IMG/VR virus record: IMGVR_UViG_3300047200_000500
Span: 1-64,000 of that record
Strand: one strand, 5' to 3'
DNA length: 64,000 bases
Source of the DNA: a virus
Shown here in pieces: positions 3,914-43,841 of this stretch; positions within the stretch are counted from its first letter, which is position 1; each line of letters begins with the position of its first letter. The position numbers were made by a program, and so were the translations under genes. A model generated the notes under the pieces. The model did no database searches. It was given only the letters and a program-made list of their open reading frames with translations, and had not been told where the DNA came from.

Positions 3914-4282
3914 TTATTTCCTTATTTTCTCATTGTTAGATTTTGCTACATTAACTACTTGTTCACGCAATTTAGAGAAACAACTGTCGCATATTTTAAA
4001 TGTTACATTACTATCAACATCATTATGGTCTGGATGTACTGTTATATTATTTATTTCGACATCATTGTTTACATTAGTGTTAGATCCACACATTTTACAT
4101 GATGGTTTATTAACATTAGCTAGTATCTTTGTTAATGCTTCATTTCCTATATCTAAATCCAATACTCTGCCTTTATCTTTATTGTTGATAACAACAGTAT
4201 GGTATACTAATTTATTGTCTTTTATTAAATAATCATTTCCTGACAAGTCACAAATAATTCCTTTTTTACTTGGGTGGAGCAT
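3914..4282 (-). CDS. hypothetical Zn-binding protein
   Basis: CDLSG, CKMC, CDSC motifs. Confidence 0.6.
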   Translation of the reverse strand: MLHPSKKGIICDLSGNDYLIKDNKLVYHTVVINNKDKGRVLDLDIGNEALTKILANVNKPSCKMCGSNTNVNNDVEINNITVHPDHNDVDSNVTFKICDSCFSKLREQVVNVAKSNNEKIRK

Positions 4283-6731
4283 TTTTGTTCCTTAATGTCA
4301 TTACACTACAGTTTCTTTGTAAATTAAATGAATGATATTTTTCATTCCACTGCACGGGTACACGGACACCATTTCCAACTTTATAAATTTCTTCATCTTG
4401 AAATCTTATTGAGTCTTCCCAAATTTTTATTGGGTATGTTTCTATGCCATCACTTACTTGATAATTTCTAAATTTTTTACCATTTTTAGTTCTGTTATCT
4501 ACAAATCCTTCAACTATTCCGTCAACGTAATAATCTCCTTCTATTTTAGCATTTTCAAAATTATATTCACTATCATATTCAAATAATTGCATTGGATCAG
4601 TCCAATAAACTCCAAGATATTCTTTCTCGAACATTAATTTTTCTTTTAAAGTATAATCAACAGTTAATGCAATTACATCATTTATTGTTGGAAAATCATA
4701 CCTTGGGCCAATTTTCGGTTCCCAATTAGAAATCTTAGCAGGAATTTTCTTTTTTGGAAATGCTTTTTTGAATTCTGTTGCTTGTCTTTCCTGTTCAATT
4801 TTTATTTTGTCACCAGACCAATCTTTTTCTAATAATATCTTATTAACATCTTCCCTTACTTTATCAGTTTCTTCACTTTTCGATGTATATTTATAAATAT
4901 ACCAGTGCCACAAACCTTTCCTATTTGGCTCTATGTCATCAAAAGCGCCAAGTTTTATTAATCTTTCAGATATAGACTTACTCTTGCCATATTTTATTAT
5001 AAAATCATTAATATCAGAACAAGCACCACCATCTTTACTATATTGCAATGCTGCATTTTCTCCAATACCTTTAATCATGGCTAAGCTAGGATATACATTT
5101 AAATTTTTATCAATCACAAATTTATCTGAAAACATTCCAATTCTTAATGGTTTAAATTTAACTCCTTCTGATTTTGCAACACTCACATGTTTTGGAACTT
5201 TATCAGGGTGGCAATATGTTAAAATTGATGCCCAAAATTCTGGAGGATAATGAGCCTTCAACCATAGTGACCGATATGCTACAATTCCATATGCCATTGC
5301 ATGTGATAAATTGAAACAATATCTTCCAAAATCAACCATTCTTGACCAATATCCTTGAGCAGAATAAAAATCTGATTTTGGGTATTTTCCTTCTTCATCT
5401 GGTTCAGTTGGATCATTTTTAAAACCATTTTTAACCATAGCAGCAATAATTCTAGGTCCAAGCTTTAAGACTTCTTCTTTTTTCTTTTTAGAAACTGCCT
5501 TTCTGGCTTTTTCTGCTTCTGGAGCAGTTAAACCACCAAACTTCATCCACATTGCAGTTAGTTGTTCTTGGTAAACTACCACCCCGAAAGTTGATGCTAA
5601 CAGTTCAGCTACTCTTGGATCTTCTTTTTTCTTCCAAGATTGTTTAGTGTCATCTCTACGAGCAGCCCACTCTGGTATCATTGCCATCGGGCCTGGACGT
5701 GCCATTGCAGTATATGCTACAAGATCAAAAAATGATTTCACTCCATTTGTCAATACACCCTTAGCTACAGGAGTGTCAAATTGGAAGACGGCATCAGTTT
5801 TTATTTGATCTGCCATTTCTATAGCTTTAGGATCATTCATTAATATTTTAACTTTAGTTCCATCAGACAATACCTCATATCCAAAATATGGCTCATCAAC
5901 AGTTGGATCGCTGACACTCCAATCAATTGTTATATCACGAGTTTGTTTTATCAATTGTTCAGTATAAACATTATAAGCCATTGTTTTTAAACCAAGAATA
6001 TCAAATTTTACAAGACCAAATTTGCTCAATTGAGATGAAGCTAAACCTTCTGTCCATTGACTAACATGTTTACCGTTAATAATGCTCATTGGTACAGTAT
6101 CAGCTAAATTAACACTACTAATGATAACCCCACCAGCATGTTGACCTTGAGATTTTATTCTACCCCTCAGTTTTAGCGCCAATTCAATTACTTCACGATT
6201 AGTTTCATAGTACAATCTAAATTCTTCATTAACTGCTGTTATATCATCCAAATCCATATCATCATATTCATTTGGTAAATTCTTGGTTAAAATTAAAGCT
6301 TTGTCCATGTCACCACTGAGAATTCTAACTGAATCAAGAATAGCCTGTTTAGTCCCTAACGTATTCCAGTTACCAACTGTACAAACTTTGTCACATCCAA
6401 ATTTGTTAGATATAAACTGTTTAATTGGATCACGGGCATAGGGAAGCATATCTGAATCAATATCTGGAAATTCCGCTTCATAAGTTATTACATGATTTAT
6501 GTTGTTGACTATTGGATCAACATTGGTTATTTTTAATAAAAAAGGTAACACTAAACCATTCTTATTTGTGTCGTATTTCTTTTTATCAATTACCATCTGC
6601 ATATAATAATCGTTGGCAGCTTGCTTTTCTATTTCCTTTAATTCAAAATCTAATCTTTTAACATATTCTGGGCCAAGTTTTTCTGCCGTCTTGGTAGCAA
6701 ACGACATTATATCGGACCATTCTATAGCCAT
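4266..6731 (-). CDS. dnaE: DNA polymerase III alpha (DnaE), catalytic-Asp/fingers/HhH/OB part, no PHP domain
   Basis: FPDIDSD, GQHAGGVII, GLVKFDILGL, VFQF, YQEQ, FNLSHAMAY, LKAHYP, IKGIG, EKEYLG. Confidence 0.92.
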   Translation of the reverse strand: MAIEWSDIMSFATKTAEKLGPEYVKRLDFELKEIEKQAANDYYMQMVIDKKKYDTNKNGLVLPFLLKITNVDPIVNNINHVITYEAEFPDIDSDMLPYARDPIKQFISNKFGCDKVCTVGNWNTLGTKQAILDSVRILSGDMDKALILTKNLPNEYDDMDLDDITAVNEEFRLYYETNREVIELALKLRGRIKSQGQHAGGVIISSVNLADTVPMSIINGKHVSQWTEGLASSQLSKFGLVKFDILGLKTMAYNVYTEQLIKQTRDITIDWSVSDPTVDEPYFGYEVLSDGTKVKILMNDPKAIEMADQIKTDAVFQFDTPVAKGVLTNGVKSFFDLVAYTAMARPGPMAMIPEWAARRDDTKQSWKKKEDPRVAELLASTFGVVVYQEQLTAMWMKFGGLTAPEAEKARKAVSKKKKEEVLKLGPRIIAAMVKNGFKNDPTEPDEEGKYPKSDFYSAQGYWSRMVDFGRYCFNLSHAMAYGIVAYRSLWLKAHYPPEFWASILTYCHPDKVPKHVSVAKSEGVKFKPLRIGMFSDKFVIDKNLNVYPSLAMIKGIGENAALQYSKDGGACSDINDFIIKYGKSKSISERLIKLGAFDDIEPNRKGLWHWYIYKYTSKSEETDKVREDVNKILLEKDWSGDKIKIEQERQATEFKKAFPKKKIPAKISNWEPKIGPRYDFPTINDVIALTVDYTLKEKLMFEKEYLGVYWTDPMQLFEYDSEYNFENAKIEGDYYVDGIVEGFVDNRTKNGKKFRNYQVSDGIETYPIKIWEDSIRFQDEEIYKVGNGVRVPVQWNEKYHSFNLQRNCSVMTLRNKNAPPK

Positions 6732-6764: not shown

Positions 6765-7262
6765 ATGAAAATGTATAAAAATAAAGAATTAATATGTGAC
6801 ATACCTGATAATTTATTGATAAATGATACAATAATTAATAAAAACAAAATATACATGATAACATCAAGAACATGGGATAATGACGATCAAGAACTATACT
6901 GTAAAGTAGAAGAATTAAAAGAAAATACACTATCCATAAGTGAGATATTAAAAGAAATATATCAATCAAATTATTTTGAAACTGTTGGGAGTAACACCAA
7001 TAATATTCAAGATAATCCTAAAACAATAATACTTTTAACAATAGCAGGATTGATAATGGAGCCTGAATATTTCAGTAACCATCATAAACGGTATAAAAAT
7101 AATATTCTGACACATTGGAATAACAAGAAAACACCATGGAATGAAATTTTTGATGACAATCCGCCAATATATATCAATGATTTGTTAGTTATTAAATCGA
7201 CAGCTGTAAAATTATTGACCGATTTAAAAATTAATAAAAATTTGTGGCCTAAATTAACATAA
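6765..7262 (+). CDS. hypothetical protein
   Basis: ORF preceded by TATAAATA (6752-6759), 13 nt before ATG. Confidence 0.6.
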   Translation: MKMYKNKELICDIPDNLLINDTIINKNKIYMITSRTWDNDDQELYCKVEELKENTLSISEILKEIYQSNYFETVGSNTNNIQDNPKTIILLTIAGLIMEPEYFSNHHKRYKNNILTHWNNKKTPWNEIFDDNPPIYINDLLVIKSTAVKLLTDLKINKNLWPKLT

Positions 7263-8475
7263 CCTTATCATCAGTCTTTGCGCCTGTCCCAATAAATAAC
7301 GTCTTTGCTCCATATTTATTGGCAACTTTACTAATGTTTTCATCGAGCCATTGTTTGGCTTTATTAGTTAATTTGTCTGAACCATTTCCACGAACTCCGT
7401 TCATTTTACCATCAACATAATTCATAAAATTGATAGATAAGAATATGTTACGGCCAGTCCTATTAAACTTTATTGAATCATCTAAACCAAGCTTCGTGAA
7501 TGTTGCAACACGTCTTGGTAGTTTTGTGACACTGGTAATTTCCATTATTTTAGTTTCTGATTCACTTAGTTTCGTGACATGATCCCAATCAACTTCAGTT
7601 TGATCTTCATACCATCCACCCGAATCGCCAATATATGTTTCAAATTTCTTACCAGCTATTTTATACTCTTCAACTTCTGCCCATGTTAAGAATTTACCAC
7701 CATCTCCAATATACTTAAAACTGCTAATTCTAATTGGGAATGTCCTATAATTAAGAATCACGTTTCCAGCATAAATTGGTGGAAGAAACATGCCATCAAG
7801 AGCAGCAGATACCGTTACATTTCTATTGGTACATGCTGGATGAAATTTATAATTCAAACTAAGTGGAAATCCTTGAGCTATTTCAAGAAGTCCTTTTTGA
7901 CCAGCATCAAGTCTTGAAATTATTTCATTTGAAACATCACATATCATTTCTTTTAATTCTGGTACATCCTTAGCATATAAGGTGTCCTTCCTTCTCAACA
8001 TTTTTCTAACTCTTGCCGGGCCTGTACCATGACAAGTAGAACCGTTTTTCTTAGTACCATCCTCTAACTTATTATATTTATTACCATCAAAATCAACTTC
8101 ACCTCTTTCATATGCCATATCTTTTTCTTGAATAATAGTAGCAAGTGGGTGAATACCAATCTTACTGATTGGAATGTTATTTTCTTCTATTTCTCTAAAA
8201 AGTGCTGGTAGTTCGATCGCTGCATCTGGCCCGATAAAAATTTTTTGATATTTATTTTGATAAGCACAACTATTGAAAGTCTGATAAAAATATGATTTGC
8301 CATTGTCAAGTTTGATCCAATGGCCTGCCTGAGCACTAAAAGCGTTGCACGCAAAATCATAATCAGCATGTTCACAAATGAATGACGCAATAGCTCCCTT
8401 ACCGCTAGAGCCTGGTGAACCATCCATTAATATTGTTAATTTGCCATTCTCAAATACAAAATTAGTGTCAAACAT
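7249..8475 (-). CDS. purZ: PurZ-type 2-amino-adenylosuccinate synthetase (PurA paralog)
   Basis: GSSGKG (Ser where PurA has GDEGKG), AGH, GSTxxG, EIAQG, RTFPIRI, TSVTKLPRR, INFMNY; AGGAG RBS. Confidence 0.85.
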   Translation of the reverse strand: MFDTNFVFENGKLTILMDGSPGSSGKGAIASFICEHADYDFACNAFSAQAGHWIKLDNGKSYFYQTFNSCAYQNKYQKIFIGPDAAIELPALFREIEENNIPISKIGIHPLATIIQEKDMAYERGEVDFDGNKYNKLEDGTKKNGSTCHGTGPARVRKMLRRKDTLYAKDVPELKEMICDVSNEIISRLDAGQKGLLEIAQGFPLSLNYKFHPACTNRNVTVSAALDGMFLPPIYAGNVILNYRTFPIRISSFKYIGDGGKFLTWAEVEEYKIAGKKFETYIGDSGGWYEDQTEVDWDHVTKLSESETKIMEITSVTKLPRRVATFTKLGLDDSIKFNRTGRNIFLSINFMNYVDGKMNGVRGNGSDKLTNKAKQWLDENISKVANKYGAKTLFIGTGAKTDDKVMLI

Positions 8476-8570: not shown

Positions 8571-9512
8571 ATGAATACATCACCAAAACTAGATGATCAA
8601 GCAATACAATATATAATTACAAATTATAATCACCGCAACTCTTCTGAATTAAGCAAAAAATTTAATGTGCAATTATCAACAATAGTTCACCATTTAAAGA
8701 AAAACAATGTTTATATAAAAGTCATGCCAAAACTCAATAATAACGACAAAATCAATATAATAAATGATTATAAAAGAGGGATTGATGTTTTAAAATTATC
8801 TAAACAATATGATATAGCTGTACAAAATGTTCATCGTTTATTAAAATTAAACAACATAAAAATACGTAATTCAAGAAATAAAAATGGTAGATTATATGAC
8901 TTGAATGAAAATTATTTTAGATCAATAAAAAATAGCGATGTTGCATATATAATAGGGTTAATAATAACTGATGGTAATGTAATGATTAGATATAACGGAT
9001 GTTACCTATCGATAACATTACATATAAACGATAAATATATTCTTGAAGAAATAAGCAAAAAATTAAGTTACAATGGCCCATTATACATTTATAAAAATAG
9101 AAATGCATGCGCATTAAAAATATGTTCTAAAATATTATGTGACGATTTAAAAAAATATTGCATTGTACCAAATAAAAGTTTAACTGTAAAGTTTCCTGAT
9201 ATTAACAAATATTTTTATCATTTTTTGAGAGGAGTTATTGATGGTGACGGTTCGATAATGATGTCACAAAAACGTAATAGACCAGCAATAGTTATATATA
9301 GTGGATCTTTTAATTTTACTAATGGCTTATATAAAAAATTATGTAAATTAAAAATGGAACCGGTATTTCAAAAAGTTAATGATAGAGCATACAGAATAAT
9401 TATCGGAAAAAGAAAACCAATAGTAAAATTATTAAAATTGTTATATAAAAATGCGAATATGTTTCTAATAAGAAAAAAAGAAATGGCTAATAAAATTATA
9501 GATCAATTTTAA
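8571..9512 (+). CDS. free-standing LAGLIDADG homing endonuclease with N-terminal HTH repeats
   Basis: YIIGLIITDG and FLRGVIDGDG motifs; antisense to flanking genes. Confidence 0.85.
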   Translation: MNTSPKLDDQAIQYIITNYNHRNSSELSKKFNVQLSTIVHHLKKNNVYIKVMPKLNNNDKINIINDYKRGIDVLKLSKQYDIAVQNVHRLLKLNNIKIRNSRNKNGRLYDLNENYFRSIKNSDVAYIIGLIITDGNVMIRYNGCYLSITLHINDKYILEEISKKLSYNGPLYIYKNRNACALKICSKILCDDLKKYCIVPNKSLTVKFPDINKYFYHFLRGVIDGDGSIMMSQKRNRPAIVIYSGSFNFTNGLYKKLCKLKMEPVFQKVNDRAYRIIIGKRKPIVKLLKLLYKNANMFLIRKKEMANKIIDQF

Positions 9513-10029
9513 TCATTTTAATTTTTAATTTTTTTAGCATCTTATCAGAAACTTCATCATATGGATATATATCCATATAACATACAGTTTTTATTTTACT
9601 TGGTAAAATAACATTTTTAACACAATTGTGACATGGGTAATTTGTTATAAACATTTTTGATGTTTTTGGATTAAATCTATCAATTGCTTTTATGAAATTA
9701 TTTTGCTCGGCATGTACCACATAAGCATATTTGTTATGTTTATCATCTTTATTCCTATTGTCCCATAACAAAACTTCGTCTGGGAAACCAACTGGAAAAC
9801 CATTATATCCAAGAAATAACGCTCCACTGTCATAATCATAAATTGATGAACCAACTTTTGTATTTGGATCTTTTGACCGAATTTGTGACCATAAATATGT
9901 AATTAACATTACTGATTTATCAATATCCAACTTACTTTTATAACATTTATTTACAATGTTATTTTTAAAATTTAAAATTTTATTAATATCTAGCTTGGTA
10001 TCTTTGCTATTACGTTTTGATTCATCCAT
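9496..10029 (-). CDS. dCMP deaminase family protein
   Basis: RSKDPNTKVG, GYNG, VVHAEQN, PCHNC. Confidence 0.85.
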   Translation of the reverse strand: MDESKRNSKDTKLDINKILNFKNNIVNKCYKSKLDIDKSVMLITYLWSQIRSKDPNTKVGSSIYDYDSGALFLGYNGFPVGFPDEVLLWDNRNKDDKHNKYAYVVHAEQNNFIKAIDRFNPKTSKMFITNYPCHNCVKNVILPSKIKTVCYMDIYPYDEVSDKMLKKLKIKMIKIDL

Positions 10030-11016: not shown

Positions 11017-11580
11017 CTATGCTGGCCAATTATTGGGTAAGAATATCCATTTTAACTTATTTGGTTCGATTATTCCTGAATGTATTTTTATCAAATATTC
11101 TGTTAAATCATTCATTGGGCCAAAAAATGTTGTATTTATTTCAAATTGATCACCGAACTGTACTAATCTCCACATCGAATCTATTTTATCTTTATCATCA
11201 GTAAAAAACAAAACTGGTTTATTTTGATCACTGGCCTTCGCTAATTCATGAAAAGTACCAACAGTAGGGCCACCTATTTTACAAATTACAAAATCACAAG
11301 CCGAAACCAATCTTAAACAAACATTTTTTATTGAATTATTCCTGTCGAAAATATGTGATACTTTAGTTACTGCAAGATTATCAAAATTGTTATTAATGTA
11401 GTTTCTGTCAGCTTTTTGATCATCACCAGTAACACTAGACATCCAAGATGGTTTAATTAATGGATCCCATACTTTAATACCAAGTTTTTTAAGTTTTGGA
11501 GTTATTTTAACTCTCCAATCATCATCATGGTTCTCGATTGGTCCTGCCAAGTACGCCTTAGTATTGTTTAATAAATTCAT
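11017..11580 (-). CDS. nucleoside 2'-deoxyribosyltransferase / dNMP N-glycosidase superfamily protein
   Basis: YLAGPI...WR...VWDP...CDFVI...GTFHEL...KPV. Confidence 0.75.
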   Translation of the reverse strand: MNLLNNTKAYLAGPIENHDDDWRVKITPKLKKLGIKVWDPLIKPSWMSSVTGDDQKADRNYINNNFDNLAVTKVSHIFDRNNSIKNVCLRLVSACDFVICKIGGPTVGTFHELAKASDQNKPVLFFTDDKDKIDSMWRLVQFGDQFEINTTFFGPMNDLTEYLIKIHSGIIEPNKLKWIFLPNNWPA

Positions 11581-11600: not shown

Positions 11601-12530
11601 TCATTTAGATAAATCTAAAATTTTTTGGATTGCATCTTTGTGGTCCCATTTATTGAATTTTTCTACAAAAGAAAATGGATTATAACTTGAACAGAAATAA
11701 AATTTCTTCCTCATTTCTTCTGATAAAATAGTTGCAGCGTGATTATAATGATTTGCTTCATATGTAAATCTTTGGATTCTTATTTCAGTATCAACATCTG
11801 GATTAAAACCATTTCCATAATGATGAGTTTTCCCATTGACAGCACACATATCTATACCAAATATAAATATCTTATCAAAATTCATAAATAATGCTGTTTG
11901 CATATTGGCATAAACACTACTCCTTCCTATATAATATCCATTAGTAATATCAATATTAAAACCTTGTCCTTGTATCGCCTTTATTAAAATCTGGTTTGAT
12001 CTTCTTGCTCTTACTCCTATACTATTTATCAATAATCCATTATATGATTCAAATTCTAATTTGTTCCTTTCATATTGACTTTGGTCACAAAATGCCCAAT
12101 AATCAGTTGGCCATATATAACTTATAGGTTTGTTTATTACCATTGTTCTGATATTTTTACCATTTTTTAAAGGTGAAAAATCAACTTCATTCGCAGACGG
12201 ACCACAAGCTATCATCACAAGTATTTGTCCAGTTCCAGAGTTTTTTAAACTCATTAACCTATTATAGTCTGCATCTCTAGTTATTGGGTTTTGTTGACTT
12301 CTGTTTACTTGTCTTATTGTTTTGTTGCTTACAAGTGGTTTATTTATTGGTTTGTGATTATTATTTACAAGAATTCTTGTTTGCGGTAACTGTTTTACAA
12401 ATAATCTAGAATTTTGAAGTTCTCTAGGTGGTTCTAAAACTTTTCCTATTCTTGGAATAGGCGGCTGAACACGTTTTATGATATTTTTGATATCTCTTTG
12501 CCTAACAACTGGAATAATTCTTTTGTTCAT
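11601..12530 (-). CDS. Maf/MptE-like (GT29-like fold) putative sugar transferase with basic low-complexity N-terminus
   Basis: IACGPS, VINK, FCD, SSVYANMQTALFMNFDKIFIFGIDM, HHY. Confidence 0.6.
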   Translation of the reverse strand: MNKRIIPVVRQRDIKNIIKRVQPPIPRIGKVLEPPRELQNSRLFVKQLPQTRILVNNNHKPINKPLVSNKTIRQVNRSQQNPITRDADYNRLMSLKNSGTGQILVMIACGPSANEVDFSPLKNGKNIRTMVINKPISYIWPTDYWAFCDQSQYERNKLEFESYNGLLINSIGVRARRSNQILIKAIQGQGFNIDITNGYYIGRSSVYANMQTALFMNFDKIFIFGIDMCAVNGKTHHYGNGFNPDVDTEIRIQRFTYEANHYNHAATILSEEMRKKFYFCSSYNPFSFVEKFNKWDHKDAIQKILDLSK

Positions 12531-12543
12531 TCTATATCTTTGT

Positions 12544-13002
12544 TCAATCAGAAGAATTTACGCCATCAGAATGATCATAAAAATTTGAGATATGGCTAAG
12601 CAATTCCGGGGCTTTCTCTTGAACTACTTGACGAACGAATGCGGAGTGATTCTTTTTTCTTCTTTTATCACTGTTTTTGAAAGAACAGAGAAGTCTTTGA
12701 ACAGTTGTAGTGACCAAGTTAAACACAGGACTACCACCTTGACAACTAGGCTTAAACTTCAACCTTCCAGTTCTAATCTTTTCAAAAAGTTTAGTGACAG
12801 CTTCGTTAGCAAGATTGCAATGTTCTTCATCATCTTTCGGCCTGAAATTTTTAGAGATACCTAAACAAATAAGATATAACATTTCTGACATGTGCTTCCA
12901 GTTTCGGTCATCACCAGTGTCCCTCCACCCAGCCCACCACTCTTCTAACTCTTTGGAATTAACATAAAATTTTGTTGGCTTCTTCGGCTTAATCAGTTTC
13001 AT
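12544..13002 (-). CDS. T4 gp55-like late sigma factor
   Basis: FYVNSKEL, EMLYLIC..IS, FKP...PVFNLVT pattern; region 2 only; start MKLIK at 13002 with GTATTTAA 13 nt upstream. Confidence 0.65.
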   Translation of the reverse strand: MKLIKPKKPTKFYVNSKELEEWWAGWRDTGDDRNWKHMSEMLYLICLGISKNFRPKDDEEHCNLANEAVTKLFEKIRTGRLKFKPSCQGGSPVFNLVTTTVQRLLCSFKNSDKRRKKNHSAFVRQVVQEKAPELLSHISNFYDHSDGVNSSD

Positions 13003-13024
13003 TAACCTTAAATACAGGACAAAT

Positions 13025-14212
13025 ATGAGCAGCAGTGTCGGAATGCAAATGCCAGGGTTGTATCTTCGTGGTTCATTAAAAAGAACTATGAGAGATGTAG
13101 ACCCAGAAATGAAAGCAGAAGTCGAAGAAATTATTAGCATGGTTTATAGTGATCCACAGTTGCAAGCATGTAAAATTCAATTTAAAAATGCTTTAAGAAA
13201 TACTATCGGCGGTGACTACAGATCGGATCAAGAGTCTGCTGATCAAGAATTTTTAGTAGCAGTATGGAGAGCAGCTGTTGCAGCAAAATGTGGATGGGGC
13301 AAACATCCAGCATCACAATCAACAATTGATGACAAAATACAAAGAAAGAAATTTTTTCAAACCTGGGTTTTTAACTATTTGAGACAAATGTTGTTAGAGA
13401 ACAAACCAGCAATTCAAAAAATTGAAACATATGATAATATACCAACGTACGAACATGTAAAAAACGAAATAATTCAATCTCTAGATGGTCATCAAAGAAT
13501 TATAAAAGAATATACATATGGTGAATGTGAAATATCAGTAAACACTAATATATTACCTACTTCAATAATAGCAAAACTGAATGTTCTAAGTGAACATTAT
13601 TGTGACAAAAATATCGACATTACTATTAACGATGATAAAATATTAGTCCTATCATCGTTTGAAATATTAAAAAAGAAATTAATAGAATTGTTAAATCCTA
13701 AGATAGATTATGATTCTGTTGTGAAATTCAGTGTAAGTGTCGATTTAAATCTTGTTTCAACTGAAATAATAAAATCAATGAACGAATTATTAAATAAGTA
13801 TTTTACTAAATTAGGCATAAAAATTACAAATAATTCAATTGAAATAGATAATTATGATAACGCAATATGTCAAAAGAAAGTTATCAAATCAAGTAGAGTT
13901 ATCATCAAATCAGTTCATAGGAATGACAACGATGAAGAAAATTGCATTCCGGAGATTGCCGATATGAATCCGGAAGAATTTAAGGACCCAGATACTATTA
14001 AAGTGTTTTATGAAAGTCTTTCAGATGATGCTAAAAAAATTGTTGATGTTATTATTAATCAACCAGATGAATATGAAGAAACATTTAAAACAAAGAAACC
14101 TGTACAGAAATATATTAGTGAATATCTTGGTTTTGAGCTAAATTATACTAAGCAATTATATTCAGAAATGAGAATAAAATATGTTAATTTAATTGGAAGA
14201 TCAAAAGATTAA
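13025..14212 (+). CDS. sigma70-family-like factor (region 2, duplicated insert, region 4 HTH)
   Basis: DQEFLVAVWRA...FFQTWVFNYLRQML; C-terminal SLSDDAKKIV...ISEYLG. Confidence 0.55.
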   Translation: MSSSVGMQMPGLYLRGSLKRTMRDVDPEMKAEVEEIISMVYSDPQLQACKIQFKNALRNTIGGDYRSDQESADQEFLVAVWRAAVAAKCGWGKHPASQSTIDDKIQRKKFFQTWVFNYLRQMLLENKPAIQKIETYDNIPTYEHVKNEIIQSLDGHQRIIKEYTYGECEISVNTNILPTSIIAKLNVLSEHYCDKNIDITINDDKILVLSSFEILKKKLIELLNPKIDYDSVVKFSVSVDLNLVSTEIIKSMNELLNKYFTKLGIKITNNSIEIDNYDNAICQKKVIKSSRVIIKSVHRNDNDEENCIPEIADMNPEEFKDPDTIKVFYESLSDDAKKIVDVIINQPDEYEETFKTKKPVQKYISEYLGFELNYTKQLYSEMRIKYVNLIGRSKD

Positions 14213-14670
14213 TACTTACCCATTAGTGGAGTTGTACTCATTTTTTGTCCAGATTTTTTATTAATATCATAAATGTTCGATGAATCGCCAATAAAATCAA
14301 CTATAACATCGATAATCTTTTTAATAGAAATCGGCCCATTAAAATCTTTTATTACATTTCTATTGTTTTGAATATCTGTAAAATTTTTGTGATCGGTATA
14401 TCCTAAGAAAATTCTTTTATTACCAAGTATGAACATATTCCATGCAACTTTAATAGTATTATCAATCAAGTCTATATCTTCTATGTTATATGCAACTTCT
14501 ATTGTTTTATTTGAAAAAGATTGTTCATTTAAATCTTGTAAAGATGGTGGATAAGCACATATTTCGAATGTCTTATCATACCCTTTATCATTGAAATATT
14601 TAACTAATGATCTACGGAGATATTCTCTCTGTAATATCCTAGTGATATCATCTTTGACTTTTTTATTCAT
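14209..14670 (-). CDS. hypothetical protein
   Basis: ORF coupled to the sbcC-like gene. Confidence 0.6.
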   Translation of the reverse strand: MNKKVKDDITRILQREYLRRSLVKYFNDKGYDKTFEICAYPPSLQDLNEQSFSNKTIEVAYNIEDIDLIDNTIKVAWNMFILGNKRIFLGYTDHKNFTDIQNNRNVIKDFNGPISIKKIIDVIVDFIGDSSNIYDINKKSGQKMSTTPLMGKY

Positions 14671-16906
14671 TAACAATGTATGAGTTCCCACCTTTATTTT
14701 TTACTTTAATCTGGTGTGGAAATTTATCTCTCATTATTTCTTTATGAGAAATTATAAATATATTGGTCAACCCACTATTTCTCTTAATAATGTCATCATT
14801 TAATAAAGTGACCAATCTATTAGTAGTAAATGGGTCTATTCTCCCATCAACTTCGTCTAATACCATCAAATTACATTGTGGTCCGAATACACTAGCATGT
14901 AAGTCGTTTAATGCGAACATAATACTTAAATCGATTCTCTTTTTTTCTCCTCCAGAATGAGTTTTGTATCCCCATCTGTCTATTTTAACATTTAAAAATT
15001 CGTCGAATTCAACTTTATCTTCTATTTCAAATGTGTCAAAGTAATATTTAATAAATTTATTAAATGTTGGGATTATTTCACTAATCCAGAATGCCCTCAT
15101 TTTCTTTTTATTATAATAACTATCTCTTATATAATCAACATGCATCTTTAATTTTCTTTGCTTATTTAATTCATCCTGTTGCTTTGATATATCAATTGTA
15201 ATATCATTAAGATTTGATTTTTTACCAGAAACTAATGATTCATATGGGTTTTCCGAATTTTTTATTTCGTTAATCCTGATTTGTATTTTTAATATTTCTT
15301 CTTTAATTCTAGAATTTAATTTAATTATTTCAGATTGTTTTATTTCTATGTCTTTTTTAAAATTATTATATTCATTTAATTGGTCTTTTGCTTCCTCAAT
15401 TGTCATTTGTGGTCTTGTTAAATCAACAATTTCTATTGATTTGATCTGATTTTCAATATCCTTAATGCCTGCTGCTAATTTTAATCTAGACTCATTTAAT
15501 GGATTTATTTTTAATTTTATTTCATCAGCTTCTTTGATGTTAAACTTTAATTTATCAACACTAATTTCTGGTTCATCGATTGATTCAAGTTTAATTATTA
15601 TCTCTGAGATTTCAGTTTTCTTATTTTCTAATTGTGACACTGTTGGAATCATTGAATCAATCTTTAAAGTTTTATCATTTATTATTGAGCAAACGTGGTC
15701 ATTAGTAATTTCATGAAAACATTTGGGACATAATTGTTCTTCTTTTATATTAGTAATGTTTTTAATATCATCTCTTAATTTTTGAGTATTAAATTTTAGA
15801 TCACGAACATCATCATTTATTTTTATAATATCATTTCTTAATTCTTTTAGTTTTTCAGACGCTTTGTTGAATTTATCCCATGATCCAATCAACAAATTTT
15901 CATCGATTAATTTAATATTATCTAATTTAGTAGTTAGATCTTTAAGTTCCCACCCAGTATTATTTAGTTTGTTTTCAAATTTTGATTTTAACTGATTTAA
16001 TCCTGTTATTTTAGTTAAATTGGCATCATTTGTTATTTTTGTTTTTTCATATGAATCCCATTGCTGTTTTATTTCATCAATATTCGATAATGTGAAATTT
16101 TTTATTTTACCATTTAATTCATCTATTTGCTTTTTAATATTATCAATTTGTTTATCAATAATAGACTTGTTATTTAACAGTTCTAATTTGATATTATTAA
16201 TTTTTATTGTTTTATTTTCATCAAATTCTTTGGTCTTTAATAATAATCCATTTATTTCATGTTCAAGAGAACTTTTAGAATTGTTTAAACTGCCAATTTT
16301 AGTTTCTAATACAGAAATATCTTCAGTAAGTTTGGAAACTTTATCTTTAGCTGTTAACGCAATTGCATTAAATGATGTTATTTTAATAAATCTTTCAAAA
16401 ATTGTTCTACGTTTTGCATCACTGACATTTAAAAACCCTTCGCTTAATTGACCATAAACTACGCTTACAATGAATGTCCTATAATCAATTTTAAATAAAT
16501 TGTTTAAGAAATCTTGACTAGGTACAGTTGTTGATCTTGTTATATCTTCTCCATTTTTAAGAATTATTAATTCATTACTACCAGCAACCTTTCTAGTACG
16601 AATTATTTCATATCCATCAGTAGTAGTTATTTTAGTTGAACAATTTTTTCCAGTATGCCAATTTACTACACTATCTCCTGGTTTTTCAAGATATGTAAGA
16701 TGACCAAATAAACACCATACAACTGCTTCTATTAGTGAAGACTTGCCGGAACCTATTCTTTTTTCATCACCTGGGTTAGATAAATCGTTTTCTTCAAATT
16801 CACCTAATATTTGTGATATCCCAGCATATTTGCTCAATAAAACTTTTGTTACATAATCACCATATCCAAGAAAATTTTTAAATTCAATTGATTCAATCGA
16901 TATCAT
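14663..16906 (-). CDS. SbcC/Rad50/gp46-like ATPase
   Basis: FKNFL, GSGKSS Walker A, coiled coil with CPKC hook, SGGE signature, LDE, ISH. Confidence 0.92.
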   Translation of the reverse strand: MISIESIEFKNFLGYGDYVTKVLLSKYAGISQILGEFEENDLSNPGDEKRIGSGKSSLIEAVVWCLFGHLTYLEKPGDSVVNWHTGKNCSTKITTTDGYEIIRTRKVAGSNELIILKNGEDITRSTTVPSQDFLNNLFKIDYRTFIVSVVYGQLSEGFLNVSDAKRRTIFERFIKITSFNAIALTAKDKVSKLTEDISVLETKIGSLNNSKSSLEHEINGLLLKTKEFDENKTIKINNIKLELLNNKSIIDKQIDNIKKQIDELNGKIKNFTLSNIDEIKQQWDSYEKTKITNDANLTKITGLNQLKSKFENKLNNTGWELKDLTTKLDNIKLIDENLLIGSWDKFNKASEKLKELRNDIIKINDDVRDLKFNTQKLRDDIKNITNIKEEQLCPKCFHEITNDHVCSIINDKTLKIDSMIPTVSQLENKKTEISEIIIKLESIDEPEISVDKLKFNIKEADEIKLKINPLNESRLKLAAGIKDIENQIKSIEIVDLTRPQMTIEEAKDQLNEYNNFKKDIEIKQSEIIKLNSRIKEEILKIQIRINEIKNSENPYESLVSGKKSNLNDITIDISKQQDELNKQRKLKMHVDYIRDSYYNKKKMRAFWISEIIPTFNKFIKYYFDTFEIEDKVEFDEFLNVKIDRWGYKTHSGGEKKRIDLSIMFALNDLHASVFGPQCNLMVLDEVDGRIDPFTTNRLVTLLNDDIIKRNSGLTNIFIISHKEIMRDKFPHQIKVKNKGGNSYIVNE

Positions 16907-20669: not shown

Positions 20670-21083
20670 TTATTTTCTAACGTCAACTAATTTACCTTCT
20701 TTAATTGCACTTATAGCCATATTCTTGCATAATTCTGTTAATTCTGTTTCAGTTTTATCAAATGTCACATTTTTTGTTTTAATAATTTCTTTAATTTCAT
20801 CAATTAAATCTTTGTTGCTTGATGGTACCTGAATATATTTATTATTTTCTTTTTTGAATATATTAATCACATAATCATTTTTTGTAAACACTGTTATATC
20901 GGGGTTCGATTTTACACTAAGTAACGCAAGTTTTAATGCTAACAAATCAGCTTGGTTAACAGAAAATTTTCCATAGGCAAAAGATCTTAACCATTTATTA
21001 TTTTGAGATATCAGTATTATAGCAAAACCGGAACCTTTATTCGGAAACGATCTGCCATCTATATGAATGTTTATATTTTGCAT
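20670..21083 (-). CDS. RNase HI-like fold protein, partly degenerate
   Basis: IHIDG, GFAIIL, NQADLLAL, N.DL. Confidence 0.6.
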   Translation of the reverse strand: MQNINIHIDGRSFPNKGSGFAIILISQNNKWLRSFAYGKFSVNQADLLALKLALLSVKSNPDITVFTKNDYVINIFKKENNKYIQVPSSNKDLIDEIKEIIKTKNVTFDKTETELTELCKNMAISAIKEGKLVDVRK

Positions 21084-23156: not shown

Positions 23157-24704
23157 TTATTTATCCATACTAATATTTAACATATTACCACCTCTAGAAC
23201 GACTAAGGAAACGATCAAATGAAAGTCCAAATTTAAGTGGATCCATACTATTTGTGATTCCAAGTAAGAAACAAACCAAACTCCCACCTGCCGAACCACG
23301 CGATGGTCCAGTTGCCCATCCACTATCATGACTAAATTTAATAATATCTCTCATGATCAAGAAATAAGATTCAAACCCCTTTTCTATAAATCTATCTAAT
23401 TCAATTTTGGCTTGCTCCGCATAAGTAACCATCTTGCTATCAACTTCATATCTTGTGGTATCTTTATACATTCCATTTCTTATTAAAGCTTTCGCCACCA
23501 ACCCCCTCAATATATTAGCTGCATCATCAACATGTGGAAGTTTTGGTTTAGTATCAGCTTTAAATGGTGAACACTTATTAGCTATTTCAAGTGTCATATC
23601 ACATGCTTTTTCAAATTGCTCATTGTTCATTATTTTATCATACCAACATTCTTTATGAGTTGCTCTTAATTCAGCACGATTTTTTAAATATAATTCGGAA
23701 CTAAAATCTTTAATCCCCTTTAAAGTGGTATTTCTCTGAATGGCCAATAATGCTTTATACAAATTAGCATCTTGTCTATTAGCATAATAAACATCATTTG
23801 TAATAACGCACTTTAATTGCTTATTATTGTCTTCCTGATATGAATCCAACAGGCTCATTAAAGTTGACATTCTATCGATATCTGAACCCCAAGGACTGTC
23901 TTGACATCTCATGGTTAGTTCAACATAAAAATCATCGCCAAATTTTTCATCAAACCATTTCATGTAATCATAAGCGCACAGTGTACCATATTCTGGGTAT
24001 TCGATCCCTTTTGTATACCCGAGTTCTATCATTTTATCTAATAAAGTTCCAGATAATATTATCAAGTTCCCATTATTAAACTTTTCAAGCATTTTTCTAG
24101 TAATACGTGGAGTGTAATAAAACCCATCAGACCACGACATTAAATTTAAATTTAACAATTCTTTATATCCCTGCTCGTTTTTAGCTAAGATCGTTATAAT
24201 CGGGGTTTTATTTTTAGAACAAGCATTAATTAAGAACGGGTGATCTTTTAATTGGTTTACAACTTTTTCTATATCATCTCCATCATCATTTTTTTCGATT
24301 GTAATTTTTTCAGATAATTCGCGTCTTTTAACTTCGTAATCACTAAAATAAGCTGATATACCAGCAATAAATTTAATTTTAGTTGATTTTGCAGATGCAT
24401 AACAGTCTGGTATACTTGACATATACCCAACTTCTGTTATTCCAAGAGTATTAACATTTAAGAATTTAGCTTTATTGAATATGTCTTCTGGTTCATCAAC
24501 TCCAGAAAGTGGGCTGAACTTAGTGTGAACATTTAAGTGTATAAAATCGCCGTTACCATATTTTTCTTCGCATTCTTCACGAGTAAGACTGAGCGATCTT
24601 TTATGAACTTTTCTGCGATAATATTTTAATAATACTTTTTGATTGTATGCTTCTTTGAATGATTTATCGTCTCCAAATACTCCGAAATTTAAAACGTCAC
24701 TCAT
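23157..24704 (-). CDS. dnaE: DNA polymerase III alpha (DnaE), N-terminal part: PHP domain plus start of palm
   Basis: FIHLNVHTKFS, LAKN..GYKEL, GFYYTPRI, TND, GPSRGSAGGSLV.FLLGIT..DPLKFGLSFDRFL; stops before the PDID motif. Confidence 0.9.
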   Translation of the reverse strand: MSDVLNFGVFGDDKSFKEAYNQKVLLKYYRRKVHKRSLSLTREECEEKYGNGDFIHLNVHTKFSPLSGVDEPEDIFNKAKFLNVNTLGITEVGYMSSIPDCYASAKSTKIKFIAGISAYFSDYEVKRRELSEKITIEKNDDGDDIEKVVNQLKDHPFLINACSKNKTPIITILAKNEQGYKELLNLNLMSWSDGFYYTPRITRKMLEKFNNGNLIILSGTLLDKMIELGYTKGIEYPEYGTLCAYDYMKWFDEKFGDDFYVELTMRCQDSPWGSDIDRMSTLMSLLDSYQEDNNKQLKCVITNDVYYANRQDANLYKALLAIQRNTTLKGIKDFSSELYLKNRAELRATHKECWYDKIMNNEQFEKACDMTLEIANKCSPFKADTKPKLPHVDDAANILRGLVAKALIRNGMYKDTTRYEVDSKMVTYAEQAKIELDRFIEKGFESYFLIMRDIIKFSHDSGWATGPSRGSAGGSLVCFLLGITNSMDPLKFGLSFDRFLSRSRGGNMLNISMDK

Positions 24705-25276
24705 TGTTTAGGCTCGTCAAAGCTAATTGATTTCATCAATTTTGACATACATTGAGCGGAAGCTATAGCGTCAGCCAAAGCTGCATGTGCTTTAGCATTT
24801 TCTACTTTAAAATGATCACATATTACGCCTAAACTATCTCCTAAATGAGATATCTTCTTTTTGATTTTATAAGCTAGCCATAATGAAATTAAGTCTATCC
24901 AATTATTGTGAATATATGGGAATACATGATAAATATCGCACTGTGAGAAAATAAAACTTTTATCAAATTCGGCGTTTTGTGCCACCATAATTGGCTTGCC
25001 ACCAGGACTTACTGATTTTAACCAATCATTCCATTCTTTTAATCCAACTTCTGGATGAACAGCAGTCTTATCCCATACTGCCTGATTATAATGCCCTATT
25101 TCTAATGCGTCAGGGTTTGCCTTATCCATATGTTGAATGATAAATCGTTTATGGAAAACATTTCTGGCATCAACAGAAAAATCATCCTTTATCAATATGC
25201 AACCAATTTCGGTAATCTCAGCGCCATCAACTGGATCTAATCCAGTGGTTTCAGTATCGAGAAAAATAATAGGCAT
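24701..25276 (-). CDS. DnaQ/epsilon-like DEDDh 3'-5' exonuclease
   Basis: FLDTETTG, AQNAEFD, AHAALAD; ATGA overlap with dnaE-N. Confidence 0.88.
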   Translation of the reverse strand: MPIIFLDTETTGLDPVDGAEITEIGCILIKDDFSVDARNVFHKRFIIQHMDKANPDALEIGHYNQAVWDKTAVHPEVGLKEWNDWLKSVSPGGKPIMVAQNAEFDKSFIFSQCDIYHVFPYIHNNWIDLISLWLAYKIKKKISHLGDSLGVICDHFKVENAKAHAALADAIASAQCMSKLMKSISFDEPKQ

Positions 25277-40467: not shown

Positions 40468-40731
40468 ATGCAAAGAACTACTTTTGAAAGATTTGACATA
40501 GTATCAATTATTACTACTAAAAATGTTAAGTGGATGTGCGATTTGCCTGGTAAGTACCCAGATCCTAAAGGACCTTGGACAATAGTATGTACATTTCCTA
40601 GATCTGGTGAAATATTAATACAAAAGAACACTGCTTTAGCTAGAATTCCTGCAGCTGACACAATAAAAGTTGCAAATTATGAATTAGAGAATGTATTTAA
40701 TAAAATCGACGAATTACCTAAAGGAATATGA
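40468..40731 (+). CDS. hypothetical SH3-like protein
   Basis: ATGA-coupled to recA. Confidence 0.55.
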   Translation: MQRTTFERFDIVSIITTKNVKWMCDLPGKYPDPKGPWTIVCTFPRSGEILIQKNTALARIPAADTIKVANYELENVFNKIDELPKGI

Positions 40732-41759
40732 CCATGGCTAAGGACAAAGAAAAAGTTAAAACGAAGGAAGAAATAGAGGATCTTGATTCAGTTCTTAAAG
40801 AAATTAATGGAAAAGATGGCGGATTAATTAAACTTGGTGGTGAGACAGATAAGGTAGAATCACTTACAACTGGGTCAATATCGTTAGATCGAGCTATTGG
40901 CATTGGTGGTTTTCCAAGAGGTAGAATTATTGAAATTTATGGTCCAGAAGCTTCAGGAAAGACCACAATTGCTCTTGGTGCCATAGCAGAAGCCCAAAGG
41001 GCTGGTCATAAAGTAGCCTTTCTTGATATGGAACATGCTCTTGACCCCAAAATGGCTAGGGGTATTGGTGTTGATTGGGATAAACTTCTTTTTTCTCAGC
41101 CTAATTATGGCGAGCAATGCCTTGATATAGCTTGTAAATTAGTTGCGACTGGCAAATTAGCAATCGTGGTTATTGACAGTGTGGCTGCTCTTATTCCTAA
41201 GGTTGAATTAGATGGTGAAATGGATGATGTTCAAATGGGTGCAATGGCCAAGATGATGGCTAAAGGTCTTCGTAAGCTTGTTCCAGTATGCCAAGAGACT
41301 GGTACAATGGTAATATTTATTAATCAGCTTCGTGAGAAATTGGGAGTGATGTTTGGAAACCCAGAAACTACTCCTGGGGGTAAAGCTCTTAGATTTGCCG
41401 CTTCAGTTAGATTAGATGTTAGAAGAAAAGAACAAATCAAAGATGGTGAAAGAGTTCTTGGAAATCATCTTAAAGTTAAGGTGGTCAAGAATAAGGTAGC
41501 TGAACCGCACCATGTGGCTGAAGTTGATCTTTATTTTGGTAAGGGTATTGATAATTTGAAAGATGTTATTGAATCTGCCATTGAATTAAATATCATTATT
41601 AAAAAGGGTTCTAGTTATTTTGAATATGGTGACATTAAAGCTGCTGGTAAGGATAAATTAATCTCTGCTCTCAATGCTGAACCAGCCAAACGTAAAGAAC
41701 TTGAAGATGGTGTTCGTGCCAGATTTGGAGAACTTAAGGTAGTAATTGAGTCTGATTGA
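40728..41759 (+). CDS. recA: RecA recombinase
   Basis: GRIIEIYGPEASGKTT, DMEHALDP, VIDSVAAL, FINQLREKLGVMFGNPETTPGGKALRF, KNKVA. Confidence 0.97.
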   Translation: MTMAKDKEKVKTKEEIEDLDSVLKEINGKDGGLIKLGGETDKVESLTTGSISLDRAIGIGGFPRGRIIEIYGPEASGKTTIALGAIAEAQRAGHKVAFLDMEHALDPKMARGIGVDWDKLLFSQPNYGEQCLDIACKLVATGKLAIVVIDSVAALIPKVELDGEMDDVQMGAMAKMMAKGLRKLVPVCQETGTMVIFINQLREKLGVMFGNPETTPGGKALRFAASVRLDVRRKEQIKDGERVLGNHLKVKVVKNKVAEPHHVAEVDLYFGKGIDNLKDVIESAIELNIIIKKGSSYFEYGDIKAAGKDKLISALNAEPAKRKELEDGVRARFGELKVVIESD

Positions 41760-42536: not shown

Positions 42537-43841
42537 ATGTCAGAGTTTAGCAAGTTTGAAGAAGAAAATATAATCCTATTAGCTTTAGAAAGTCCTGAAT
42601 TTTTTCATAGAATAGCTTCATTCATGAAGGCTGAATATTTTGTATCTGAAGAAGCACAATATTTGATGAAGTTATATTGTGAATATTATGAAAAATATGA
42701 TGAAGTTCCAACTAGAGAAATGGTTAAGAATATGGTTTATAAAGAATTGACTGTTGATGATCCAATATCAAAACCAATCATTGAAATAATTGACAGGGAA
42801 TTAGATCCAAGAAATGCTCCATTTATTAAACAACATATAATTAAATGGGCCAAACAAAAGCAAATTTCATTGCTTTATGATGATACAGTAATGGAAAGAG
42901 TTAAAGCTGGTGATTTTGAATCAATAGAACAAATAGTTGATGATGCGGCTAAAATCAGTGACACTATTATTAGACCGTTTAATTTTTTCAAAGATGTGGA
43001 TCAATTATTTGAAATTGAAGATAGAGATTATTTTACAACTGGGTTTCCAAGAATTGATAAAGAGATACATGATAAGGGGCCATGTAGGAGAGAGGTGATT
43101 TGTTTTGTTGCACCAACTGGTGTAGGTAAAAGTTTTACAATGGCCAATGCTGCAATAGCTAATGTAATGGCTGGAAGAAATGTGCTTCATGTTTCACTTG
43201 AAAATGACGAAAAAGTAACTGGAAATAGGTATCTTGGAGCGTTCACTAATTCACCAATAAGAACAAGAGTTGAAAATAAAAATGATATTAAAGAAAAAGT
43301 TAGAAAGATTAGAACATCAACTAATTCAGACTTGTATATTCTGTTTTTTCCAACAGATTCTATTACTGTTGATACAATTGAATTATCTATGAAGGAGTTA
43401 CGTAAACAATATAATTTTGTTCCTGATGTTTTGTGTGTTGATTATCTTGAATGTTTATTATCAAAGGTTTCATCTAAAAACAAAGATGATTATGGAAGAC
43501 AAAAATCAGTATCAAGTGAATTCAGAGCATTAGTTGCTAAAACCAATACTTTGGGAATAACCGCTAGCCAATCTAATAGAAGTTCGGTTAGTGGAGAAGG
43601 TGGCCCAATTAATTTAGATAAGTTGGCAGAATCGTTTGGAAAGTCAATGCCGATGGATGCGGTGATAAGTTTGAACCAAACAACTGAAGAATATACAGGA
43701 GCTAATGCTGGGCAACAATCTCATATTGGACGTATAAGATTATTTATGGCTAAAAATAGAAATGGTAGAAAGGGATTCATAGTTAATACTAGTATTAACT
43801 ATGCAACAATGAAAATGATGGAAGATTCAACATCTTCATGA
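42537..43841 (+). CDS. replicative DnaB/gp41-like helicase
   Basis: TGF..ID, APTGVGKS, SLE, VDY, ASQSNR, AES, KNRNG. Confidence 0.9.
   Translation: MSEFSKFEEENIILLALESPEFFHRIASFMKAEYFVSEEAQYLMKLYCEYYEKYDEVPTREMVKNMVYKELTVDDPISKPIIEIIDRELDPRNAPFIKQHIIKWAKQKQISLLYDDTVMERVKAGDFESIEQIVDDAAKISDTIIRPFNFFKDVDQLFEIEDRDYFTTGFPRIDKEIHDKGPCRREVICFVAPTGVGKSFTMANAAIANVMAGRNVLHVSLENDEKVTGNRYLGAFTNSPIRTRVENKNDIKEKVRKIRTSTNSDLYILFFPTDSITVDTIELSMKELRKQYNFVPDVLCVDYLECLLSKVSSKNKDDYGRQKSVSSEFRALVAKTNTLGITASQSNRSSVSGEGGPINLDKLAESFGKSMPMDAVISLNQTTEEYTGANAGQQSHIGRIRLFMAKNRNGRKGFIVNTSINYATMKMMEDSTSS

Follow-up and report, generated by a model that had tools for sequence, protein, structure and literature searches.

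A PurZ-like gene of a large freshwater-sediment phage represents a diverged family with its own conserved neighbours

Phages that carry 2-aminoadenine (Z) in place of adenine (A) in their DNA have been sorted by the most recent survey into seven gene-sharing groups, whose accessory genes form two toolkits, DatZ/MazZ and DutZ/DmtZ, and the examples named in the literature that we surveyed are small sipho- and podoviruses. Phage S-2L achieves full substitution with a non-selective PrimPol, by control of the nucleotide pool alone, and when only part of the S-2L Z-cluster was present in E. coli, less A was replaced than with the whole cluster. The PurZ of S-2L can itself consume dATP (PMC8342488). 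Phages with the related enzyme PurZ0 use the second toolkit, in which DmtZ cleaves dAMP and moves deoxyribose-5-phosphate to the Z base while its partner DutZ hydrolyses dATP/dGTP (PMC12884076). A nucleoside 2-deoxyribosyltransferase (NDT) from contigs enriched in dZ, NDT-M2, prefers dA (bioRxiv 2025.10.22.683976). Here we describe a PurZ-like gene, predicted to encode a succino-amino-deoxyadenylate synthase homologue, in the first 64,000 nucleotides (the window) of IMG/VR record IMGVR_UViG_3300047200_000500. The record is 169,621 bp long with 32% GC, is ~46% complete by CheckV, which leaves roughly 200 kb of the genome missing, and occurs in freshwater sediment metagenome assemblies.

An earlier reading made from the letters of the window alone (the sequence-only reading) had called the gene PurZ, and had described the known Z-phages as much smaller sipho- and podoviruses, which agrees with the named literature examples. 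We compared the gene product with PurA, PurZ0 and assayed PurZ, followed its family through metagenomic collections, and examined the genes that travel with it. The gene sits within a replication and nucleotide module, a context in keeping with PurZ-type activity and Z in the DNA of the phage, the reading that we favour with a probability of roughly 0.55.

The PurZ-like protein and its family

The gene opens with ATG and runs for 408 codons on the minus strand with no internal stop (Table 1). Its product matches Pfam PF00709 (adenylosuccinate synthetase family; E 5e-15) and PHROG 1211, '2-aminooxy adenylosuccinate synthetase' (E 5e-34), and contains all four of the motifs from which the sequence-only reading had argued, GSSGKG, TSVTKLPRR, RTFPIRI and INFMNY. 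We aligned it with PurA, PurZ0 and PurZ references, those for PurA being bacterial. At the P-loop, the loop after the catalytic strand and the nucleotide-base motif, respectively, PurA reads GDEGKG, TTGRRRR and TKLD; PurZ0 reads GSEAKG, VTNKVRR and SFAD; assayed PurZ reads GSTGKG, VTK(K/L)xRR and NFxNY; and the query family reads GSSGKG, VTKLPRR and NFxNY. The alignment bears out the earlier residue assignments, in that the P-loop has Ser where PurA has its catalytic Asp, Leu319 stands in the column of PurA Arg303 (assayed PMBT28 PurZ is likewise TKLPRR), and NFMNY occupies the TKLD column, where PurZ has NFCNY or NFANY. A GTP motif of TKxD/TLLD type is kept, along with the catalytic Asp, by the aligned bacterial PurA sequences, whereas the query family has neither.

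These positions have known roles. Arg303 of PurA contacts the ribose 2'-OH and has no PurZ counterpart, and the S-2L and phiVC8 structures show adenine stacked on and hydrogen-bonded by the Asn, Phe and Asn/Gln of NFxN, residues that clash with guanine (PMC8342488). In PurZ the PIR(V/I) strand is followed by a loop insertion that moves a hydrophobic residue toward C2' (PMC8342488); in the query this residue is Ile, and the insertion after PIRI is of ~30 residues. The query keeps every residue that contacts the 2-amino group and the ATP adenine in the solved PurZ structures. A dZ-enrichment association study ranked W252, Y244, S273, F295, Y298, S14, F12 and T262 (phiVC8 numbering) as PurZ-specific positions (bioRxiv 2025.10.22.683976), and by our reading of the 6fko alignment the query retains W, Y, F, Y, S and T there, with Thr at S273 and Pro at F12; the last position is Phe in close relatives.

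With the ATP-using PurZ of phiVC8, SH-Ab 15497, PMBT28 and S-2L (PDB 6FM1, 7ODX) the query thus shares the P-loop Ser, the NFxNY motif, the VTK(K/L)xRR loop, a W/Y after the PIR(V/I) strand and the compact archaeal-type PurA fold. It is only 27-29% identical to assayed PurZ, and two features set it apart from all reference PurZ: QAGH in place of NAGH, and a length of 408 aa against 343-387, owed to the ~30-aa insert and a longer C-terminus.

The fold is seen both in the PF00709 match and in an AlphaFold2 (AF2) model, which was built on 26 family sequences and has a mean predicted local distance difference test score (pLDDT) of 91.8. The best solved sequence match is phiVC8 PurZ (6fko, E 7e-25), and S-2L PurZ (E 6e-14) stands behind both phiVC8 PurZ and Pyrococcus horikoshii PurA. 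The top Foldseek matches of the model are 6fm1, 5k7x and 6tnh, with template modelling (TM) scores, normalised by query length, of 0.72-0.73; PurZ0 (7vf6) ranks lower, as do the long PurA enzymes of bacteria and eukaryotes.

Trees made with FastTree, with a quick IQ-TREE run and with a careful IQ-TREE run (LG+C20 PMSF, 63 rows, with PurA represented by the bacterial-type sequences of the outgroup) have the same topology. In the careful tree the 17 rows of the query family group together (support 100/99) and are nested in a 44-row crown clade (99/88) with the PurZ of phiVC8, SH-Ab 15497 and PMBT28. The earliest branches are PurZ0 and a grade of GSEGKG sequences, PurZ0 and PurA both fall outside the crown clade, and the PurZ0 clade (99/95) excludes the query family. 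The query is not a PurZ0, as it has no GSEAKG P-loop, carries NFxNY, which PurZ0 does not, and lies outside the PurZ0 clade; nor does it look like a PurA, as it scores 70.8 bits on TIGR00184 purA against a cut-off of 395.55, in addition to the Ser and NFxNY at key positions.

The family is large. A word-indexed search of 5.8 billion proteins returned 297 relatives, and among the 120 of these that were listed identity is 52-91% and length ~360-465 aa, and several members come from contigs 100-331 kb long. When 1.84 billion cluster representatives were searched exhaustively with HMMER, 1,319 matched. GDEGKG, the P-loop of PurA, does not occur among the best 150; the P-loop could be found by pattern in 114 of them and is always GS[S/T/E/C/G/A]GKG, the other 36, mostly fragments, giving no pattern match. 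Across 26 members with 54-85% identity to the query, GSSGKG, RT[FY]PIRI, TSVTKLPRRV and NFxNY are invariant or nearly so (N349, F350, N352 and Y353 are invariant), and the quoted motifs are therefore not a product of chance. The PurZ-like gene is under strong purifying selection (dN/dS ~0.08 against its closest orthologue, with dS near saturation). A pattern scan of one genome from each of 185,579 prokaryote species found a single distant relative (28% identity), in a Saccharibacteria metagenome-assembled genome, which gives no clue to the host. The family is coherent, phage-specific and derived from uncultured large phages, and it probably represents a diverged branch of PurZ, not described before, with members spread widely among uncultured phages of large and giant size. 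This PurZ-clade family numbers at least 300 proteins, the contigs that encode them reach 331 kb, and it would bring a much broader set of viruses into consideration as carriers of Z-DNA.

The nearest protein from an isolated phage, at 36.8% identity, is ORF141 of Flavobacterium phage MaF61 (PQ858689), annotated 'putative adenosuccinate synthetase'. It has GSSGKG and NFVNY and lies in the same family clade as the query, and MaF61 is a cultured, large, contractile-tailed myovirus of 167.8 kb that infects Flavobacterium sp. B330. Its genome is otherwise unrelated to the record, with only four open reading frames (ORFs) that match at E 1e-5, and the paper describing MaF61 contains no discussion of the synthetase gene or of DNA composition. 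Because this cultured phage carries a member of the family, the Z idea is directly testable.

Many family members are interrupted by inteins (Hint/LAGLIDADG) and reach 750-824 aa (P0121, P0122, P0126; L040:3521-5893). At least two insertion sites are used, which lie roughly past residue 147, ahead of the Cys of GSTCHG, and past about residue 220.

Conserved neighbours and a possible route to Z-DNA

To describe synteny we clustered the ORFs of 22 loci, made up of 21 IMG/VR loci that carry the family (given L-numbers here) and the first 20 kb of the window. Eleven of the 22 share a block of SbcD, SbcC, three unknown proteins, an MptE-like protein, a 187-aa NDT-like protein, a 211-aa protein with a deoxyribose-5-phosphate aldolase (DERA) fold, in some cases a dCMP deaminase, and the PurZ-like protein. 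The DERA-fold gene lies between the NDT-like and PurZ-like genes in eight loci (the window, L020, L023, L025-L027, L029 and L038), and in L023, L025 and L026 the ends of the three genes touch or overlap; in the clade of the query phage the three make up an operon-like block. In the window, a homing endonuclease gene, the dCMP deaminase gene and a small zinc-ribbon ORF are interposed between the DERA-fold/NDT-like pair and the PurZ-like gene. In L020 the dCMP deaminase gene immediately precedes the PurZ-like gene, and in L031 the two are close together.

The NDT-like gene is 2.5 kb from the PurZ-like gene, and its product matches PF05014 at 35.5 bits, over the cut-off of 28.8; it is a candidate dNMP N-glycosidase or transferase. 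Tyr10, Gly13, Pro14, Glu16 and Glu112 are invariant among its relatives and Asp96 nearly so. Tyr10 and Glu112 align with the catalytic Tyr6 and Glu103 of Ghobes DmtZ, and the invariant Glu16 falls in the column of DmtZ Asp12, which confers dAMP specificity, in an alignment that is poor outside the motifs. Beyond these family motifs there is no detectable relation to DmtZ, and comparison of the NDT-like profile with PDB sequences gave no significant solved relative.

The DERA-fold protein has no Pfam match and was recognised through its AF2 model (pLDDT 88.3), for which the ~40 top Foldseek matches in the PDB are all DERA (best 6d33, E 5.5e-8, TM 0.73). By model strand order it has a near-invariant Arg157 on strand 6 and an invariant Lys188 on strand 7, where E. 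coli DeoC has Lys167 and Lys201. Its profile found nothing significant among PDB sequences, and hhalign gave no usable alignment to E. coli DeoC. No DERA-fold partner is among the Z-pathway enzymes described in PMC12884076, whereas the block described here has one. The sequence-only reading did not mention the NDT-like and DERA-fold neighbours, which turn out to be the best contextual support for it.

The phages with PurZ0 offer a parallel, in that NDT-family and dUTPase-family accessory enzymes there take the place of DatZ/MazZ, and the record has both families. Its dUTPase-family gene (162134-162760 of the record; assigned at family level only) is unlinked to the PurZ-like cluster. The dUTPase-family proteins carry N-terminal extensions, of ~250 aa in the related genome G007 (L053:996-2153) and ~70 aa in the record.

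A more distant sister subclade, comprising MaF61 and the genomes G012, G013 and G016, encodes a PurB-type lyase (in MaF61 at L001:23673-25028) and no NDT gene, and MaF61 and G013 also have a MazG-like ORF. A phage-borne lyase alongside the synthetase is what a succino-purine product would lead one to expect. MaF61 thus differs from the record, which has the NDT-like gene and in which no PurB was found. More generally the two genes are complementary in distribution, the lyase occurring only in the subclade that lacks the NDT-like gene and the NDT-bearing records lacking the lyase.

From the residues and the neighbours we infer the following pathway. A PurZ-type enzyme would join dGMP and aspartate, at the expense of ATP or dATP, into N6-succino-2-amino-dAMP, from which a lyase, that of the host in the query phage and a phage-encoded one in the MaF61 subclade, would yield dZMP. 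Host kinases would convert dZMP to dZTP, and a non-selective phage replicase, here a two-part DnaE, would insert Z opposite T, as the S-2L PrimPol does. Adenine would be excluded by the NDT-like enzyme, which may cleave dAMP to adenine and deoxyribose-5-phosphate, the released sugar phosphate being handled or bound by the DERA-fold protein. The pair would then do the job of DatZ/MazZ and would resemble DmtZ/DutZ of the PurZ0 phages. In its fullest form, which we put forward as a tentative proposal and not as the expected outcome, giant T4-like (gp23-capsid) phages of freshwater sediment would replace most or all of their A by 2-aminoadenine independently of DatZ/MazZ, by means of a diverged PurZ, an NDT-family dAMP N-glycosidase, a lysine-less DERA-fold protein and non-specialised replicases that include a two-part DnaE. 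If so, Z-genomes would extend from sipho- and podoviruses of ~40-80 kb to jumbo myoviruses, and there would be a third independent way of excluding adenine. The distinct conserved neighbours would point to new enzymes of deoxypurine-pool control, and the proposal also bears on which polymerases can copy Z-DNA, those of these phages being of DnaE, PolA or PolB type and not DpoZ.

PurZ activity and the alternatives

Several observations weigh against PurZ-type activity with Z in the DNA of this phage. On the NCBIfam PurZ model NF038379, which has a cut-off of 300 bits, the query scores 133 (133.2), about level with Salmonella PurA (128); phiVC8 PurZ scores 397, Ghobes PurZ0 346, the protein of Bacillus phage vB_BpsS-140 211 and that of MaF61 145. 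On the archaeal-type PurA model the query scores 132 bits, about what it scores on the PurZ model. The archaeal-type PurA of P. horikoshii (PH0438; PDB 5K7X, 2D7U) is nearly tied with phiVC8 PurZ in similarity to the query, both in sequence (E 1.3e-23 against 7e-25) and in fold (Foldseek 1.1e-21 against 3.6e-22). An approximately unbiased (AU) test failed to reject a tree in which all other Ser-clade sequences group to the exclusion of the family (p 0.237, at a cost of 12.9 log-likelihood units). QAGH for NAGH, a trait of the query subclade, together with Pro at F12, makes the base pocket of the query unlike that of assayed PurZ. Six-frame hidden Markov model (HMM) searches of the whole ~46%-complete record found no HD/YfbR-like DatZ, MazG, DUF550, DUF5664 or PurB-type lyase, the same Z accessory genes and PurB were not found in the 91%-complete relative G007 (247 kb), and no DpoZ-type polymerase was identified in either. 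Finally, the DERA-fold protein appears from its model to lack the Schiff-base Lys, having Arg there, with the second catalytic Lys kept.

The claim that the gene is PurZ therefore stands in part: the residues and the tree, which nests the family with assayed PurZ (99/88) and not with PurA, speak for it, but it fails the curated NCBI model and the AU test permits an outside position. Since it falls below the NF038379 cut-off, we class the query as a new, diverged PurZ-like subfamily and not as a curated member. That the window holds no DatZ or MazZ was borne out and now extends, by HMM search, to the whole record and to G007, where a weak DUF550 match (E 0.004, then 0.039) was rejected. These query-type genomes are those of large myovirus-type phages in which no DatZ, MazZ or DpoZ was found, unlike the PurZ phages.

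Among the alternatives, the one that survives best, though we regard it as doubtful, is that PurZ-like chemistry serves another substrate or fate. The enzyme could act on dIMP (to give dAMP), dXMP or a 7-deazaguanine nucleotide, or its succinylated product could be kept as a hypermodified base, in a non-Z pathway with the NDT-like, DERA-fold and MptE-like neighbours. The score under the curated PurZ cut-off and the QAGH and Pro of the base pocket are consistent with this, as are the placing of the 30-aa insert after PIRI in the sugar-pocket loop, the tight conservation with three proteins that are missing from all described Z clusters, and the failure of HMM searches to find DatZ or MazZ. It is less easily reconciled with the retention of all the 2-amino-group and ATP-adenine contacts of solved PurZ, with a tree that nests the family among assayed PurZ, or with the PurB-type lyase of the sister subclade, because of which the succinyl group is probably removed. 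Were it correct, giant phages would hold an unknown purine modification pathway.

It is less probable again, and in our view unlikely, that the protein is a true PurZ whose activity leaves the genome unconverted, the dZ nucleotides or the drain on dGMP/dATP serving to manipulate the pool, with trace or partial Z or with interference in host replication or defence as the outcome. No dATP-removing enzyme of a known type and no Z-selective polymerase were found, the incomplete S-2L cluster gave lower substitution in E. coli, and S-2L PurZ can burn dATP, all of which would suit such a role. Against it, conserved synteny places the gene between those for the replicase and for nucleotide salvage, purifying selection on it is strong, and S-2L reaches full substitution via pool control, which the NDT-like gene could supply here.

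The weakest alternative, an ordinary auxiliary PurA that uses GTP to turn IMP into adenylosuccinate and so supplies more adenine nucleotides to an AT-rich genome, can draw on PF00709 membership, on the 32% GC of the record, on the near-equal similarity of archaeal PurA and on relatives that encode PurB, which with PurA makes up the IMP-to-AMP branch, but is very improbable given a catalytic Asp that is Ser family-wide while 99% of PurA-clade sequences keep it (PMC12884076), a GTP motif TKLD replaced by the adenine-binding NFxNY, Leu for the Arg that contacts the 2'-OH, the low TIGR00184 score, and a family that occurs in genomes of up to 56% GC.

Replicases and other genes of the record

The description of the phage as large, AT-rich, DnaE-encoding and myovirus-like was accurate, given its size and GC content, a T4 gp23-type capsid gene in the record and a two-part DnaE. 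The gene immediately downstream of the PurZ-like gene encodes a DnaE core without a PHP domain, and the PHP subunit has a gene of its own, 16 kb from this core and beside that for a DnaQ/RNase T-type exonuclease (Table 1). DnaE directly follows the PurZ-like gene in the window, L020 and L038, and is nearby in L021 and L022.

Table 1. Features of the window around the PurZ-like gene and of its DnaE-type replicase
Feature	Position	Strand	Basis
DnaE polymerase core (palm/NTPase, fingers, HhH), no PHP domain	4266..6731	-	PHROG 405 E 6e-112; PF07733, PF17657, PF14579
PurZ-like succino-amino-deoxyadenylate synthase homologue, 408 aa, GSSGKG subfamily	7249..8475	-	ORF, PF00709, PHROG 1211, alignment, trees, AF2
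Free-standing homing endonuclease, between dCMP deaminase and PurZ-like genes	8571..9512	+	PHROG 4645 E 6.5e-51
dCMP deaminase	9496..10029	-	PHROG 174 E 8.5e-24
DERA/DeoC-fold conserved protein, 211 aa	10336..10971	-	AF2 and Foldseek
NDT/DNPH1-like protein (nucleoside 2-deoxyribosyltransferase family), 187 aa; candidate dNMP N-glycosidase or transferase	11017..11580	-	PF05014
MptE-like protein (PF01973-type), upstream block member	11601..12530	-	Atlas feature score 0.93-0.95; structure TM 0.6-0.73 to MptE-like clusters; 11 loci
Separate PHP-domain subunit of DnaE-type replicase	23157..24704	-	Pfam PHP 92.9 bits and start of PF07733
DnaQ/RNase T-type 3'-5' exonuclease beside PHP subunit	24701..25276	-	PF00929 E 4.9e-16

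The sequence-only reading had made AT-richness part of the story, with Z adding a third hydrogen bond to most pairs, and had taken a family C replicase as a context that would be new. Loci carrying the family span 26-56% GC, which makes the AT-richness incidental and led us to drop the idea of PurZ as a pool rebalancer for AT-rich genomes. Relatives also vary in replicase: DnaE is found in the window, L020, L021, L022 and L038, PolA in G012 and PolB in G013 and G016, and none of the three was detected in G007; we therefore dropped DnaE as the defining partner. GenBank already offers a case of a PurZ-like gene together with a two-part DnaE, the 55-kb Bacillus siphovirus vB_BpsS-140. Because of the GC spread, the varied replicases and this precedent, the combination of AT-rich genome, third hydrogen bond and family C polymerase is not a family trait. 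Of the suggestion that the context would be new, what remains concerns the kind of phage, as full-text literature searches turned up no report that connects PurZ with jumbo or T4-like phages.

The DnaE of vB_BpsS-140 has its PHP domain and core split in two overlapping ORFs (L017:31814-35421), unannotated in GenBank, and that of L020, the closest relative, carries a LAGLIDADG intein in its core (L020:11744-15559). The homing endonuclease gene of the window is not at this junction in L020; a related endonuclease is there in L038 (L038:8752-9960). Between SbcCD and the NDT-like gene, the MptE-like protein and three uncharacterised proteins (12544-13140, 13025-14212 and 14209-14691) are found in 10-11 related loci.

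A megablast of 25 kb against the phage collection gave no match. The window also contains a 370-aa ORF (46886-47998) whose similarity to the family A DNA polymerase domain is confined to the C-terminal third of that domain (PF00476 positions 246-380); the ORFs flanking it (45468-46175 and 46190-46879) had no match in a Pfam search, and the phage may have a split or minimal PolA in addition to its DnaE replicase. Outside the window, the match to the gp23-type major capsid protein is split over overlapping frames (98135-98833 and 98817-99362 of the record), and a frameshift, programmed recoding or an error in sequencing may be the cause. Despite the T4-type capsid, RecA (40728-41759), a DnaB-like helicase (42537-43841) and RNase H (20670-21083) are of bacterial type and not of UvsX/gp41 type.

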